DNA of 12,310 nucleotides from Oligoflexia bacterium (GTDB lineage Bacteria; Bdellovibrionota; UBA1018): the NCBI GenBank assembly GCA_043732485.1, contig JAYTHP010000144.1:1-12310 (forward strand), read 5' to 3'. Both the position numbers and the translations under genes were made by a program. Positions 5,662-12,310 of the stretch are shown in pieces. The notes under the pieces are model-generated. The model made no database searches and was not told the origin of the DNA. It was given only the letters and a program-made list of their open reading frames with translations. How positions within the stretch are numbered: position 1 is the stretch's first letter; every line of letters starts with the position of its first letter.

Positions 5662-5688
5662 TCAAGATCCTCGGCGTCTCACCGATGA
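5662..5688 (+). promoter_or_regulatory. Putative sigma28 (FliA) promoter of the MCP gene
   Basis: TCAA (5662-5665)-N15-ACCGATGA (5681-5688) versus consensus TAAA-N15-GCCGATAA. Correct spacing, directly upstream of a chemoreceptor gene. Confidence 0.75.
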
Positions 5689-5717
5689 AGATCCTAGCAA
5701 AAGGAAATCAAACGATT

Positions 5718-7520
5718 ATGGGTCAAAAGAAAAACTTACACACCAGGTTACTCACTTTGTTCGCATTGCTTACGGTCCTGTCCGCGCTGGCCGGCATATC
5801 AGGTTACCTAGGGCTCTCACGGGTGATTCAGCACTATTCGCAAATCACCGACAATAATCTGCCGCATGTGAAGATTGCCGGCGAGATGTTTCGCAGGTTT
5901 CGTCAGGTGCGTATCAGTATGATGACGCTTGGTCTGCCAGGACTTAACCAAGCCGAGGGGAAAAAGGCGTTAGACGAGCTCAAGAAGTACGAGGCTCTCT
6001 ATGACGAAGCAGGTGATCAGTATCTGAGTTATCAATTTAAGCCCGGAGTGGTTTTTGCTCCTAGTGAAAAGAAAGCTTTTGAAGCTGCCGCAGAGCAGTG
6101 GGTGCGGTTTCGGGCTGTAGCCGATCAAGCGGCAGCACTCTACCTGTCCGGAGAAGAGGCTAACTTGCGGAAGATTGCCTCTTTGTGCTTGAACGAGGGC
6201 GAGGAAGCCTCCAAGGCCTACAACGAGGCGATGAACAAGCTGATCGACTTCAATGATCGTGCCGCCCAAGCCTCCGTGGCTGAGGCGGAGATGAGTTCAA
6301 AGTTTGTCAATCTCTTGGATCTGGTTTTGATCGTGGTGGGTTCGATCGTCACAATGGCTGTGGGCCATTTTTTTGCCAAAGGCCTCACGGAATCGGTACG
6401 CGGCATCACCCAAGACCTGTCGCAAGGAGCCGAAATCGTCGACTCAGCAGCGCAGCGAATTACCGCTGCAAGTCAGGATCTCTCCTCCAGTGAGACTGAG
6501 CAGGCGGCGGCCTTGCAGCAGACAGTGGCCTCGCTTGCTGAAGTGAGCGCCATGGTCGATAAGAACGCTGAAAACGCTAGACGCTCGCAAAAAGGCTCAA
6601 AAGAAAGCCAGGAAGCAGCCCAGCGTGGCAATCAAGTCGTCGGCGAGATGATTCGCTCGATTCAAGAAATTAGCGACAGCAACGATAAGATCATGCAGCA
6701 AGTTGAGGCCAGTAATCATGAGTTTTCGCAAATCGTCAAGGTAATCGCCGAGATTAGCGAGAAAACCAAAGTGATTAACGACATTGTTTTTCAAACTAAG
6801 TTGCTTTCCTTTAACGCTTCGGTGGAAGCGGCCCGCGCAGGCGAGCACGGCAAAGGGTTTGCAGTGGTGGCAGAAGAGGTCGGGAATTTAGCACAAATGA
6901 GTGGTTCTGCTGCTAAGGAGATCTCGCAGCTTCTAGAAAGTAGTATACAGAAAGTAGAAAGCACCGTGAATCAGACTAAGTCAAAAGTCGAGGGTCTGAT
7001 CCGGGTGGGCAAAGAAAAGGTTGATTCCGGCTCCACCACCGCCAAGCGCTGCGGAACAGTGCTTGAGGAGATTCTACAAAACGTCACCTCGGTCGGCGAA
7101 ATGTTGGCTGAAATCACCGTGGCTTGTAACGAGCAGGCGACAGGGGTGTCAGAAATCAATAAAGCCATGAACCAGATGGATCATGTGACGCAAAAAAACG
7201 CCGCAGCTTCACAACAAGCCACTGCAACCGTCACCTCGCTCAGCGAAGAAGCCAAGCTACTCAGGGGCTCCGTTCACAAGCTGTTCGATTTAGTGGAAGG
7301 TGATGCGATCCGTGCTCACTCCTCACTGGCGGCGAATGCCCATCCACAAGCGACCGTTGACGCTCGTGCTGCCCGAGTGATCGATTTTGCCGCCCACCGT
7401 GACGCCAAGAGCGCTCACCGGGAGCCTGCCCCTCATGAGCATCTGGCTGCTCCACTCAAACAAGCAGTAGGAGGCTATCGCACGCCCTCAGGCGATGATC
7501 CTCGGTTTGAAGATATCTAG
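5718..7520 (+). CDS. Methyl-accepting chemotaxis protein (periplasmic four-helix-bundle-like sensor, no evident HAMP)
   Basis: Two TM segments flank a helical periplasmic domain. Signalling tip [43 protein letters not shown], methylation-type helices ([16 protein letters not shown]). Start placed at ATG 5718 (AAGGA at 5701-5705) because ATG 5685 lies inside the sigma28 -10 element. Confidence 0.95.
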
Positions 7521-7587
7521 GAGAGCGCGGTCTCAAGACGCTTACTTCGAGTAGGGTGATTTCTGGTATGCGGTTGGGCGCGGCAGT

Positions 7588-7680
7588 GAAAAGAAAAAAA
7601 AGAGAAATCCCCCACTAAAGGCGGACGGTGAGAGAGACGGGTGACTTGTCCTCGTCTCCTTTCGATGGGACTTTTTTTTC
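7588..7680. terminator. Long imperfect hairpin flanked by A8 and T8 tracts; possible bidirectional terminator
   Basis: GAAAAAAAAG (7593-7602) is the exact reverse complement of CTTTTTTTTC (7671-7680). Nested pairs TCCC/GGGA, AAAGG/CCTTT and GAGACG/CGTCTC. Lies about 70 nt after the MCP stop. Confidence 0.6.
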
Positions 7681-7730
7681 ATGTTTTTAACGAATTTACA
7701 CAAGACTTTACGAGAGATAAGTCGTAATCC
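7590..7730 (-). ncRNA. Candidate small RNA (~140 nt), unknown family
   Basis: Bounded by a near-consensus sigma70 promoter (7737-7765, minus) and a hairpin plus U-tract. Has a 5' stem UUACGA/UCGUAA and an AU-rich linker. Inferred only; no family recognised. Confidence 0.5.
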
Positions 7731-7736
7731 AATCGT

Positions 7737-7765
7737 ATTTTAAATAAAATCAGGGTGATTGTCAA
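7737..7765 (-). promoter_or_regulatory. Putative sigma70 promoter, leftward
   Basis: Minus strand reads TTGACA (7765-7760), exactly 17 nt, then TAAAAT (7742-7737): 6/6 and 5/6 matches to consensus. Confidence 0.7.
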
Positions 7766-8770
7766 TCGCTTTTCATGCGCTCAGGTGCCAGTGCCAATGA
7801 ATCTTCAGTAGAAAATATTTGCTCAAAAAGATCAGGAGAAATTCTAGCAACTCTCTTCGCTGGACTGAGGGGAAGGCTCACGCCTCGTCTAGCGATTTTG
7901 ATCGTCGCCAACCTCAAAAACTGGGTACTATTATTTGCCGCCCAACAGCCACCCAACAGCCGCGAAGACCGCCTACCTGGTTGCGTCAGCAGTGCGCTGT
8001 TGAGGACGACGAAACGTGGTTTTTTGCTAGCAAGTTGTGCCAAGCTTGCCGCGTGCAGAAGCAAAAAGGGAGCCATTCGCTGGGGCTCAGTTAAGAAAGG
8101 GGCGGAAAATCACACGCGGTTTTTGCCCGTTCTGGGGGAGATTTTTAGGGTCGTGATTACCTGTCAGTGATCATCACCAAGCGCTAAAATCTGCCCCTCT
8201 GGCCGGAAGAAATAGGGTACTGTTTTAATTTTCTATTGGGTGGAAGCAGCGGGATTCATAGGGGCCAAAAATAGCGGGATAGGGGGGGACCAGGGATCAC
8301 CTCAGGCGGATCTCCTGAATACTTGATTAATTTGATCGTTGATTATTGATCCGCAGCTTCAGCGACGTTCAGGGAAGGTGGATGTCGGTGGATGCGACTG
8401 AGCTCAAAGCAGCGAGTGATTGAAGGACGCAGTTGATGGAGGTAGACTTGATTGGAATCTGATCGTGGCGTAATGTCGAGCCTGCTCACTCTGCTGAAAG
8501 AAAATGCGCAGCCACTGAGACGACCACTCTGGGTAACGCGAAGTGGGCAGTCAGTTATCCCAAAAGCGGATCGTCCAAGCCACTTCCCACCTTTGTTTTT
8601 CCTCCTACTGCAACAAGGGGAGCTTCTAGGGTAGTCAACACCTGCCCCACCGGCCTAGGTTTACGTTCCCAGGAGTCCTCCCAGCTAAGCTTGGAACTTC
8701 TCCACTGCCGCCGAAACCCTTTTAGCGCCAGCGGCACACTAGCTTCGGCCTGTGAGTTGAAAGCGCCGTC

Positions 8771-8796
8771 CATGATAGCCCAGGTCCGCTATCATG
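8771..8796. repeat. Perfect 9-bp inverted repeat
   Basis: CATGATAGC-ccaggtcc-GCTATCATG. Confidence 0.8.
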
Positions 8797-8958
8797 ATTA
8801 GCCTCTTGCTGAGCGAGGTTAGCATCGAGCGTAAAAGCTATGCCTCCCGAGCGCACAGCAGGGTGATTCTCATTTCCTGGATCGCTGCAGCAGCGGCGGA
8901 CTGGAACACAGCTAGCACTCTGTGGGTCCCTTGTTATGCGGGTGCGGCCTCCCCTGAG

Positions 8959-9003
8959 GCCCCCTGACGGCTATAGAGCCGGATCAGATAGCCGTCAGGG
9001 GGC
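8959..9003. repeat. Perfect 16-bp inverted repeat with 13-nt loop
   Basis: GCCCCCTGACGGCTAT (8959-8974) / ATAGCCGTCAGGGGGC (8988-9003). Confidence 0.92.
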
Positions 9004-9823
9004 GATTCGTAATGGTAAAGCACTGGAGGAGGCCCTTCTCTCATTTTGCCTAGGGTGCGGTATTTTCCTAACATCTCCCTTAATTTTAAAAAGGCAGTAG
9101 GCAGGTTCTTGCTTTTAAGCGGAGAGCAACCTAACCCCCAGCTTCCTGATTCCCGGACTTTGTGGATCGTTTCCTAGCTGAGAGCGGCGGCAATGAAGTC
9201 AGAAGCGGAGCTGCGCATGAGCTCCCTAGCCCCAGAAGACCGCATCGTTGCCCATCAATGAACTGGGCGATGCACTCGGCGCCTTCACCCTGGTTCTTAG
9301 AGCAGAAACCGATTTTTTCAGATCATTGCCGATCGGCACATGAGCGGGGCTTAGCACTGCGGTGACCACCCTCTCGCCTTCCGGAAACTGGACTCAAATC
9401 CTTGCCTCTAAGGGCCTCAGCGGGTTTCCTCGCCCCGGCCATGGGATGCCGATACCGCAGTTTTTACCTTACAGGAGAGAAATTATAGTCGGAAAAACCT
9501 AAAAAAAGCCTTTCTCTCCAACGTTATCGCCGAAAAAAGAACCATTTTTTGCCGCCTGATCTACGCCTTGTTGCTAACCAGTCGATCCAGCTCACGCCCC
9601 GGGTTCCCAAAAAAGCCGACTGGCCGCCACATGGTCCGGCCCCAACTACCATAAATGGCCGCCTTCGATCACGCCGCCTCCAATGAGTATTATGGGGGGA
9701 TCGCTGAGGCTGGACTAGGAACTCAGACTGGAGCTGGTTTGACGGGTGACTTGCAGGGTGAAGTCAGGATCTGCAAGCAGAGTTCAGCAATGGCAAGAGA
9801 CGGTTTTTATGAGTCACTTCATC

Positions 9824-9890
9824 AAAAAAAGCCCCATCCCAGGCGGTTGGAGGTGGCTAGCACCGCCTGCGCTCGCTGGAAATGGGGCTT
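9824..9890 (-). terminator. Probable terminator of the minus-strand secreted-protein gene
   Basis: Outer stem AAGCCCCAT (9829-9837)/ATGGGGCTT (9882-9890), inner stem CAGGCGGT (9840-9847)/ACCGCCTG (9862-9869), ending in T7 on the minus strand. Begins about 54 nt after the stop at 9944. Confidence 0.6.
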
Positions 9891-9943
9891 AAGGGCTGGA
9901 TCAAGAGAGACCAAGAGCAAGAGCGACCGAAAAAGGCGTTGCC

Positions 9944-11167
9944 TTACGAGGTCGGACCGGCAGTACCGAGCTGTTCTAACAGTTCTGGCATGGTGGTCAG
10001 GGCCCAATCGAGGGTAAACCTACCGCTTGAGGAAATCCCAGGCGCCGAAGTCGGCGTGGAGATAGCCATGCCGGTGCACAAGTCAGACGAGGCTGGCAAG
10101 GTGCCCCCGTTTGCGCTGCTGCTATTCAGAGTGACGCAACCTTGCTGCTGAATCGTCCCACCGGTGGAAGGGGCTAAGGTCGCAAAGGTGGTGTCAAAAG
10201 CGTGACTGGTGACGGTGGGAACCGTTGCAGTCGTGGCATTGCTAGCTGAGGCGAGAGCAGAAGGAAACGCCCCGGCAGCTGGAATCGGAGAGTCGGAGTT
10301 GCGCCCGAACACCCCGTCAAAGAGAATAGAGGCAAGGCCTGAGGTGTAATCACCGTGCATGAACAAGCGACCCACCACGGCTCCGTTTGCGTTTTCTGGG
10401 TTAAAGCTCACTACGCTCCAGAGTTGATAAGTGTTGGCGGCAGGATTGTAATAGATTCTCATCAGATTCACGCCGCGAGCGGTATGAGCGACATTGCGAA
10501 CGTGCTCCACCATGTAGACTTCAATGCCTTGGTTGCTGGCATCTACGGGACCATTGTAAAGGGCAATTTCACGGTTATAAGCATGGCCTAGGATCTGGGC
10601 GTTCCCGCTGTTGGAGTCTAGCATCGGCATGCTTACTGCTGCGTAAATGGCTCCAGTAGAGCCGCAATCAAATTCTACGGCAAGCGAAAGCGGTACGGTT
10701 GCGGTCCCACCTAAGACAACACCGGCTGTGAAAGTGACGCGGTGGGTAAACACTGTGCCGCCGTCGACCCAGTCGCTAGGAATGGTGTGGGTGGGGGTGG
10801 CAAAAGTCAGGGTGTACGAGGTGCCATCCGATCCGGTGCCGGTAATCGAGCCGGTGCTGGGTAATTCTGCGCAACTCACGGTGCCACCGACTGAGGCGAC
10901 CGTTGAGATTTGATTGATGAAGTCAGTGATCGTGCCGACGATGCCGTTTTTGGGAGGTCCGTCGCAGTTGTTGGCGCTGACGGTCTTGCCCCCGCATGCC
11001 AAGTTGGAGTAACTGTCGTTACTCGAGTAGCCGACTACCTGTTGAATCGAATTTCTAATTTCGTTGATAATGTTCGCCCTGACCATAGCGCTTGAAGCGT
11101 CGCGGGCAGCCGTAAGCTGGAGAGAAGTCAGGAGTGAAAATAGGATGAGTTTTTTAGACTGAATCAT
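9944..11167 (-). CDS. Hypothetical secreted Ser/Thr/Gly-rich protein, 407 aa
   Basis: Long ORF with GAGGA 10 nt upstream (11178-11182). Sec-type N-terminus MIQSKKLILFSLLTSLQLTAARDASSA, six Cys, alternating beta-strand-like patterns. No family recognised. Confidence 0.85.
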   Translation of the reverse strand: MIQSKKLILFSLLTSLQLTAARDASSAMVRANIINEIRNSIQQVVGYSSNDSYSNLACGGKTVSANNCDGPPKNGIVGTITDFINQISTVASVGGTVSCAELPSTGSITGTGSDGTSYTLTFATPTHTIPSDWVDGGTVFTHRVTFTAGVVLGGTATVPLSLAVEFDCGSTGAIYAAVSMPMLDSNSGNAQILGHAYNREIALYNGPVDASNQGIEVYMVEHVRNVAHTARGVNLMRIYYNPAANTYQLWSVVSFNPENANGAVVGRLFMHGDYTSGLASILFDGVFGRNSDSPIPAAGAFPSALASASNATTATVPTVTSHAFDTTFATLAPSTGGTIQQQGCVTLNSSSANGGTLPASSDLCTGMAISTPTSAPGISSSGRFTLDWALTTMPELLEQLGTAGPTS

Positions 11168-11430
11168 TGTGGAGTCGTCCTCGTTGTTGGGTTAGCGCTG
11201 TGGGAGCTTTTTTCGCTCCCAAAGCTGAGTTTTGGGTTGCTGTGTCAGTGGGCGGCAGGGTGAAAAATTGATCTTTTTCCCTCTACCCGGGGTTGGCCTC
11301 TCGTGCTGCTAAAGCTGTGATCTTCTGGTTTTGGGTGCGGCTCATGCTAATGAGGCGCATTTAAGCACTAGATTTTAAGCAGGCACGATACTAGGAGGTG
11401 GTTTCTGACATCTCACGGCTTAGTTTCAAA

Positions 11431-11589
11431 CTACTGCACACAAGCGCTGGTGCCACAGGTCACACTGGCGACTGGGTATTTTTCCGTGGCAGAAGAGCTG
11501 GGGGTGGTTTCTGCTTTTTTGGCGCAACCTTCCCATGCACTCAAGCTGATTAGGAGACAAAAAGACGTGAAGATAATTTTTTTTCGCAT
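11431..11589 (-). CDS. Small lipoprotein-like protein, 52 aa (absent from the ORF track)
   Basis: Hand translation: MRKKIIFTSFCLLISLSAWEGCAKKAETTPSSSATEKYPVASVTCGTSACVQ*. SD-like AAAGAGGA just upstream, basic N-terminus, hydrophobic core, Gly-Cys22, then a Ser/Thr linker. Confidence 0.75.
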   Translation of the reverse strand: MRKKIIFTSFCLLISLSAWEGCAKKAETTPSSSATEKYPVASVTCGTSACVQ

Positions 11590-11600
11590 AAATCCTCTTT

Positions 11601-11710
11601 GGTTAGTAACTATTGTAAACTGTGCAATACAGCTCTTAGTTTAAGTTTATTTATATTAAAATCAATAAGTATTTTAAAATATTAATAAATAATATTATTA
11701 CTGAGGCAAG
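11601..11710 (-). promoter_or_regulatory. AT-rich promoter/regulatory region upstream of the small lipoprotein-like gene
   Basis: 11641-11700 is almost entirely A/T in an otherwise GC-leaning window. Palindromes TATTTTAAAATA (11670-11681) and AATAATATTATT (11688-11699). Exact -35/-10 elements cannot be assigned. Confidence 0.55.
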
Positions 11711-12310
11711 GGGGGGGTGAGACTGCCAGCGGCTTGCGTTAGTGGACCAATAGCCGGTCGCGATCAGGCACCTGCCAGCTTGATGGGCCTTCCATGCCTG
11801 CAAAACTGCAGCTTTGGCTGTAGGCTCTGCGCGGAAAAAAATAAAAGTGCAGGAAAGAGGAAAAAGCAGCCCCTGAGAAAACAAAAGCTGAGGAGGCGCG
11901 GGCGGGAACCTGTAAGCTAGGGTGAAAGGGGGGGCGGGCGCGTTTACAGGGTTTGCAAAGGTTAAAAAAAGTTTCTTGAGCCTAGTCAAGGGTTTGACGG
12001 CTGCAAGTGGTTGCAGTTTTTCAGGAGGCGCGGCTGTGAGAGGCAGGCGGGGCCCCGTTTTTTTTTGACTATTAGCAGGGAATTCGTATAATTGGAGCTT
12101 GCAGAGGGGCAGAAAAACCTTCCTCAAGCCTTCCCCACAAAGTAGGTGGAGGCAAGTCATGGGCTTGAGGTGCGAAGACTCGCGCAAAGTACCGTTGGTG
12201 CCAGCCGTCGTGAGGCGTTTTTGGCAGCGTGAAGGAGCGAGAAAAACTTGAGTTGCGCAAGAAGAAGTAAGCAGATTGCGCAGCAACGAAATGAGGCAGC
12301 TTGTGGATTT

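Follow-up and report, generated by a model that had tools for sequence, protein, structure and literature searches.

The question raised by this locus is whether the non-coding DNA beyond the 3' end of a methyl-accepting chemotaxis protein (MCP) gene gives rise to a small RNA. The window analyzed was an entire contig of 12,310 nt (C144), which belongs to an 89% complete MAG, assigned to the Bdellovibrionota on the basis of its best protein relatives, whose assembly comprises 2.58 Mb in 250 contigs. A preliminary description had proposed that a promoter on the minus strand, convergent with the MCP gene, drives the synthesis of an sRNA of about 140 nt that shares a bidirectional terminator with the MCP gene and has a layout typical of trans-acting sRNAs. 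The analysis described below indicates that the candidate is a plausible but unsupported orphan transcription unit. The preferred reading, which was assigned a probability of roughly 0.45, was that a short non-coding RNA is made, most probably as an unselected by-product whose effect, if any, is limited to cis.

The MCP gene (5685 to 7520, plus strand) encodes 611 residues and was identified by its matches to MCPsignal (5.4e-41) and 4HB_MCP_1 (3.8e-14). Upstream of it, the plus strand carries, in this gene order, a partial aminotransferase, a histidine kinase, a response regulator, uroporphyrinogen decarboxylase and a radical-SAM (HemN-like) enzyme. Coding potential was evaluated with a dicodon log-odds score for which 917 long ORFs from the same genome served as the training set. 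On this scale, chunks of true genes have a mean of 0.61 and a 5th percentile of 0.18, and wrong frames have a mean of -0.74. The MCP gene scored 0.648. Every ORF between 7521 and 9943 fell below the 5th percentile of real genes, so that this region holds no credible gene, in agreement with the earlier claim that none follows the promoter. Two ORFs in this region, one on the plus strand (7775 to 8170) and the other on the minus strand (7762 to 8076), were considered as genes and rejected; their coding scores were -0.115 and -0.272, respectively, neither had a Pfam match and both hold a non-coding repeat. The closest real gene on the minus strand is a 407-aa ORF that ends at 9944 (9944 to 11167, coding score 0.434), for which a Pfam family was not found, even at E 0.1. 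The contig is otherwise dense, and the 2.4-kb non-coding stretch from 7521 to 9943 contains a terminator, an orphan promoter, two short repeat families and what looks like a mobile element. At the end of the contig, a 211-aa ORF (11651 to 12286, minus strand) had a coding score of -0.137, as expected of non-coding DNA, and adjoins a trough in G+C content of 0.37-0.40 at 11401 to 11850.

A sigma-70-type promoter-like site was found on the minus strand at 7765 to 7737, exactly where the preliminary description had placed it, with TTGACA at 7765-7760, a 17-nt spacer and TAAAAT at 7742-7737. It agrees with the consensus at 11 of 12 positions, the -35 hexamer being perfect, the -10 hexamer matching at 5 of 6 positions and the spacer having the optimal length of 17 nt. 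When the contig was searched for TTGACA-N17-TATAAT with at most one mismatch, there was one match in 12,310 nt, compared to 0.02 expected, and 4 of 200 shuffled sequences had any match at all.

Genome-wide counts were used to evaluate the meaning of such a site. With spacers of 16-18 nt, the whole genome contained 15 sites matching at 11 or more of the 12 positions versus 31, 21 and 14 in three block shuffles. This undivided count looked unenriched, and the enrichment emerged once intergenic and coding DNA were separated. Proxy intergenic DNA (691,651 nt) had 10 sites with a score of at least 11/12, as compared to 2.9 ± 1.6 in 12 dinucleotide shuffles, and 110 sites with a score of at least 10/12, as compared to 76.8 ± 8.3. 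Inside proxy genes, sites of at least 10/12 were depleted on both the sense strand (48 versus 64-79 in five codon shuffles) and the antisense strand (79 versus 98-123). Sigma-70-like motifs are therefore about 30% rarer inside genes, on both strands, than in codon-shuffled genes, and intergenic DNA is enriched in them. The upstream regions of 39 tRNA genes were also scanned. The best score reached at least 9/12 in 9 of them on the sense strand versus 2 on the antisense control, and an exact TTGACA occurs 13-36 nt from the tRNA at several of these genes. RpoD is encoded in the genome (403.5 bits). The intergenic enrichment, the depletion within genes, the matches upstream of tRNA genes and the presence of RpoD together show that matches to the sigma-70 consensus are informative in this genome, and the promoter at 7765-7737 is likely to be usable. 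Four of the 15 near-consensus sites of the genome reside on a single contig, C73, at 28223-28285 and 34686-35065.

The picture changed when the near-consensus promoters were sorted by what follows them. A plausible coding-like ORF on the same strand was found within 400 nt of 7 of the 10 intergenic sites, versus 32% of 2000 random intergenic strand-positions. The orphans number three (C27, C246 and C144), close to the two or so expected by chance (2.9 x 0.68). Thus, the excess of near-consensus promoters belongs to those with a gene behind them; orphans are not in excess, and there is no statistical sign of selection on the orphan promoter at 7765-7737. Because only the near-consensus promoters that precede a gene exceed chance, a promoter paired with a terminator is by itself weak evidence that an sRNA gene is present here. 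The two other orphan sites are both on the plus strand of their contigs (C246:19429-19458 and C27:39990-40018).

The possibility was considered that the promoter is a silent chance motif in an AT-rich spacer, not measurably used, and that the hairpin downstream is simply the MCP terminator with an A-rich flank that extends its stem. The number of orphan sites agrees with this explanation, and the G+C content around the candidate unit, 0.42-0.45 compared to 0.54 for the genome, favors the occurrence of such motifs. However, a site that combines a perfect -35 hexamer, 5 of 6 positions of the -10 hexamer and a 17-nt spacer outscores the best match upstream of every one of the 39 tRNA genes, for which the maximum was 9/12. 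Moreover, the depletion of these motifs within genes implies that the polymerase uses them where they are present. A silent motif was consequently judged possible, if somewhat unlikely, and the properties of the predicted RNA also bear on it.

Transcription from the promoter is predicted to start at 7729 to 7731 on the minus strand, 6-8 nt past the -10 hexamer as dictated by promoter geometry. The candidate RNA would open with a weak 5' hairpin (7708 to 7727, minus strand, -5.1 kcal/mol), in which UUACGA (7727-7722) and UCGUAA (7713-7708) are separated by 8 nt. It would continue with an AU-rich stretch (7676 to 7707, minus strand), predicted from sequence and fold to be unpaired, that ends in A8 (7679-7672). 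Folding then places a long imperfect hairpin at 7603 to 7674 that is common to both strands and corresponds to the stem of the MCP intrinsic terminator. The predicted 3' end of the RNA (7589 to 7601, minus strand) is a tract consisting of U8 (7601-7594), C (7593) and U4 (7592-7589). The 5' hairpin and the U8-C-U4 tail are both present as originally described. The three nested stems that had been listed were also located, with AAGUCCC (7673-7667) paired to GGGAUUU (7611-7605) through one G-U pair, AAAGG (7662-7658) paired to CCUUU (7621-7617) and GAGACG (7658-7653) paired to CGUCUC (7639-7634). However, G7658 is used twice in this arrangement, so one of the stems must be one pair shorter.

The stability of these structures was compared with that of 200 shuffled sequences in each case. 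The 147-nt RNA folded with -32.8 kcal/mol on the minus strand (z -0.97), and 29 of the shuffles were equally good. The 75-nt stem had a folding energy of -23.1 kcal/mol on the minus strand (z -1.33, 24 shuffles equally good) and -22.2 kcal/mol on the plus strand (z 0.01, 101 shuffles equally good). For the 5' hairpin on the minus strand, z was -0.94 and the number of equally good shuffles was 36. No stability beyond that of shuffled sequence was seen for the full RNA, the 75-nt stem or the 5' hairpin. Furthermore, the A8 run pairs with the U8 run in the minimum-energy fold. Both the missing structural signal and the pairing of the two runs count in favor of a silent chance motif.

The hairpin is located 75 nt past the MCP stop codon on the plus strand and is followed there by T8 (7672 to 7679), the termination tract of the MCP mRNA, which identifies it as the intrinsic terminator of the MCP gene. 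On this face, a 59-nt hairpin of -20.7 kcal/mol ends 2 nt ahead of the T8 run. In a simple terminator scan the plus face was clear, whereas the minus strand had only a local stem of 5 pairs, and our own crude scan gave -8.8 kcal/mol for the minus face. The order on the plus strand is A4-G-A8, hairpin, T8, which yields a hairpin with a T-run on each strand. The hairpin is thus a putative bidirectional terminator, with a 5' A-tract and a 3' T-tract around one stem. The minus-strand hairpin and its U8-C-U4 tract are positioned 130-140 nt downstream of the promoter and are weak by simple rules. The proposal of an sRNA of about 140 nt with a shared bidirectional terminator therefore holds in part. 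The T-run on both strands, the promoter and the geometry of a 90-nt overlap with the MCP transcript agree with it, but the minus-strand stem is weak in the scan and the fold is no better than that of shuffled sequences.

Bidirectional intrinsic terminators occur at convergent transcription units. As in these systems, a single hairpin with an A-rich tract on its 5' side and T8 on its 3' side provides a hairpin and U-run on each strand. However, the convergent partner of the MCP gene at this terminator is not a gene; the minus strand has only the orphan promoter, which would produce at most a 140-nt RNA, and the nearest gene ends at 9944. The hairpin is also long (about 60-75 nt) and imperfect. 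In addition, a crude genome-wide scan found an A-rich 5' flank at 8 of 104 co-directional and 3 of 46 convergent terminators. Since such flanks are no commoner at convergent pairs, the flank seen here is unusual but not diagnostic, and is poor evidence for a transcript on the minus strand. Terminator-like sites downstream of 610 genes showed a weak strand bias, with 104 in the sense and 84 in the antisense orientation, in a scan that was crude and serves as a rough base rate only.

It was also considered that the minus face of the terminator stops leftward transcription arriving from further to the right, the promoter at 7765-7737 being incidental. Such transcription might originate from the 407-aa gene (11167-9944) or from the 1.4-kb inverted-repeat element (8240-9682). 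In keeping with this idea, the nearest real minus-strand gene, with its coding score of 0.434, does end at 9944, no clear gene intervenes between this position and the terminator, and the mobile element appears to have been inserted between them. However, the read-through would have to span 2.3 kb (about 0.8 kb if the element is discounted), and no promoter pointing out of the element was identified. This explanation was judged highly unlikely.

An open frame exists behind the promoter and could in principle represent a small protein gene. It extends over 7542 to 7703 on the minus strand and encodes 53 aa from TTG 7703 or 46 aa from ATG 7682, with the stop codon at 7544-7542. The 46-aa version (7682-7542) had been offered as a weaker alternative to the sRNA. 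The frame is present as described, but it was rejected as a gene, having coding scores of -0.336 (53 aa) and -0.356 (46 aa), compared to the 5th percentile of 0.18, and no Pfam match. The A8 and T-runs of the terminator account for its Lys and Phe runs. Moreover, the stop codon is about 45 nt past the U-tract, so the terminated RNA would not contain it. Neither a complete ORF inside the predicted transcript nor a coding-like composition, the features by which a small protein or type I toxin gene would be recognized, was found, and a protein product is extremely improbable.

The candidate was then compared with known RNA families and with related genomes. When the contig was searched against Rfam 15, there were no matches at the gathering thresholds and, up to E = 5, none that overlapped 7588-7765. 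A second copy of 7521-7892 was not found in the genome itself. The comparison with 40 relatives (24 of the same family, 16 of the same order and none of the same genus) gave no credible match to the candidate and was without power. A search of 74 same-family genomes, again with none of the same genus, returned only 4 short matches (E 3.7e-4 to 7.2e-3), which are 22-39 nt long and lie mainly in the T-rich stretch. The single genomic copy and the lack of a credible match elsewhere are likewise consistent with a chance motif. Among 27 MCP-related loci, blastn at a word size of 7 detected only chance matches of 14-28 nt and nhmmer detected none. Plasmid and phage collections had no match for 7521-9700.

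The genomic neighborhood is not shared with the relatives that were compared. In collections of genomes and metagenomes, the closest relatives share 48-57% identity with the MCP, and the best of them (55-57%) have different neighbors, with a CheA-like gene on one side and a cysteine-dioxygenase-like gene on the other. The HemN-like neighbor is kept in 29 of 40 family genomes at 52-66% identity. In 8 regions downstream of the HemN-like gene in relatives, no homologue of the MCP or of the 407-aa protein was found at E <=1e-5. Because the relatives compared include neither a same-genus genome nor a syntenic locus, the absence of matches does not bear on conservation. Of the 7 sequencing runs found, none was of RNA. 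Contigs of four glacier-metagenome runs were also aligned to 6500-8500. Two short ones (7462-7685 and 7493-7671) match the sequence studied here exactly and thus offer no variation for covariation analysis. The remaining glacier-metagenome matches were unrelated MCP signaling domains.

These results can be set against the original view that the locus encodes an sRNA of about 140 nt that functions in trans by base pairing; its AU-rich open stretch would then serve as the seed on mRNAs from elsewhere in the genome. Promoter, 5' hairpin, open stretch, terminator hairpin and U-tail do follow one another as proposed, and the unit has no coding potential. At the level of motifs, an intergenic promoter of its own with no gene downstream would be in keeping with an sRNA gene. 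However, a search for Hfq (PF17209) was negative both in the genome itself, which is 89% complete, and in all 41 family genomes examined, of which 23 are of high quality; it did match E. coli, B. subtilis, Caulobacter, Thermotoga and Methanocaldococcus. ProQ (PF04352), sought in this genome only, was also not found, and its search control matched. The lineage thus appears to be without Hfq and ProQ, and the chaperone on which an Hfq- or ProQ-dependent sRNA relies was not found in these searches. Furthermore, in a crude scan of the open stretch against 60-nt windows at gene starts, the best duplex had an energy of -21.3 kcal/mol, and 18 of 24 shuffled seeds were equal or better. A fold no better than that of shuffles, no Rfam match and no conservation to draw on, with relatives that include no same-genus genome, weigh in the same direction. 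The description of the candidate as a typical trans-acting sRNA was consequently left without support, and such a function is regarded as unlikely.

The E. coli screens of Argaman et al. and Wassarman et al. in 2001 reportedly took an orphan sigma-70 promoter together with a Rho-independent terminator as the criterion for sRNA genes. The candidate resembles the genes recovered in this way, in that an intergenic non-coding stretch has a near-consensus promoter followed 130-140 nt later by a hairpin and U-tract. In contrast, it is a prediction from sequence with no structural signal, its host lineage appears to be without Hfq and ProQ, and orphan promoters of this type are not in excess over chance.

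Another parallel is provided by Bdellovibrio bacteriovorus HD100, a member of the same phylum. Its attack-phase sRNAs include eight that are intergenic, measure 98-655 nt and lack homologues in other species (Karunker et al. 2013, PMC3627812). They were found by RNA-seq and start-site mapping, and 3 of the 8 have FliA-type promoters, TTAAG-N16-CCGATA (PMC3627812). Species-restricted sRNAs are thus documented in this organism, a point in favor of a trans-acting sRNA, and the candidate is likewise intergenic and had no credible match in the relatives searched. However, it differs from the B. bacteriovorus sRNAs in having a sigma-70-type promoter and in being a prediction from DNA. A search for TTAAG-N15-17-CCGATA gave no match in the contig, where the sole CCGATA is at 9449. 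Since the B. bacteriovorus sRNAs also lack outside homologues, missing conservation is compatible with a real RNA but adds no evidence for one.

The preferred explanation, a short non-coding by-product, suggests the following sequence of events. RNA polymerase would initiate near 7730 on the minus strand and stop at 7601-7589, producing a predicted RNA of about 130-145 nt that is species-specific and non-coding. The MCP 3' UTR extends from 7521 to about 7680, and the candidate RNA would overlap it in antisense through its 3' 90 nt. The RNA would be the by-product of an unselected promoter, and the second face of the terminator would keep antisense transcription out of the MCP gene. If both RNAs end as predicted, an overlap of about 90 nt (7589-7680) follows from the geometry. 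Because these 90 nt are exactly complementary to the MCP 3' UTR, a perfect duplex with the 3' end of the MCP mRNA would be the sole built-in interaction of the candidate RNA. This duplex is a predicted substrate of RNase III, which is encoded in the genome (128.9 bits), and its cleavage could trim or destabilize the MCP mRNA. A trans-acting, chaperone-assisted role would be the less likely option. The candidate unit lies at one edge of the 2.4-kb stretch, which is free of genes, rich in repeats and possibly under relaxed selection, a point against the preferred explanation.

Overlapping 3' UTRs and cis-antisense RNAs are processed by RNase III in Staphylococcus and Listeria, where in the latter they are known as excludons. 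The term excludon is also used in PMC3627812. The locus resembles these systems in that the genome encodes RNase III and the two predicted RNAs would be fully complementary across about 90 nt (7589-7680); it differs in that the overlap is a predicted one, limited to the terminator itself. A more ambitious proposal is that the level of one chemoreceptor in a Bdellovibrionota lineage lacking Hfq is tuned by a recently arisen, species-specific antisense sRNA, which would pair with the 3' end of the receptor mRNA across a shared two-way terminator. This was considered very unlikely. If true, it would represent a chaperone-free, 3'-end-directed control of chemotaxis input. If real, the candidate would add one more lineage-specific small RNA to the phylum, of which B. 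bacteriovorus is the only member surveyed. A small RNA adjoining a chemoreceptor gene in a lineage seemingly without Hfq would be of modest interest and would open no long-standing question.

The remainder of the gene-free stretch contains several repeats. A 1.44-kb element without ORFs at 8240-9682 carries imperfect inverted repeats of about 35-40 bp (TGGARGCRGCGKGAT...) at its two termini. Other contigs of the genome (C137, C140, C141, C7, C96, C159 and C152) hold at least 7 copies of it, complete or partial, with 76-80% identity. Several copies are at contig ends, and the indels among the copies are not multiples of three. A transposase-bearing copy was not found in the assembly. There was no plasmid or phage match to the element, and the 74 family genomes gave only one 55-nt match resembling the terminal repeat. 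It looks like a non-autonomous mobile element.

Closer to the promoter, a 55-nt intergenic repeat at 7894-7948 on the plus strand (TYGTCGCCAACCTCAAAAACTGGGTACTWTT...GTCGCCCAAC) has 5 copies, on C144, C27, C18, C87 and C172 (nhmmer E 1.5e-17 to 8.4e-6), and was not found in the 74 family genomes. Its motifs are spaced as in a promoter, T[TC]GTCG-N18-TACTWT, and the direct repeat GTCGCC(C)AAC lies within it. In three cases, the copy is directed toward the 3' ends of convergent genes. The sequences downstream of the copies are unalignable and often end in a T-run, which in C144 is at 8019-8026. The repeat may represent a paralogous promoter, an operator or the beginning (5' end) of a small-RNA family. 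A 79-nt repeat at 8162-8240 on the plus strand has 4 copies, on C144, on C86 and two on C141. A consensus fold of the four copies gave nothing convincing (-7.45 and -3.66 kcal/mol). The repeat opens with TTGTCA-N18-T[AG][AC]AAT around a GTGATCA(T/C)C palindrome, and the copy in C144 abuts the left end of the 1.44-kb element.
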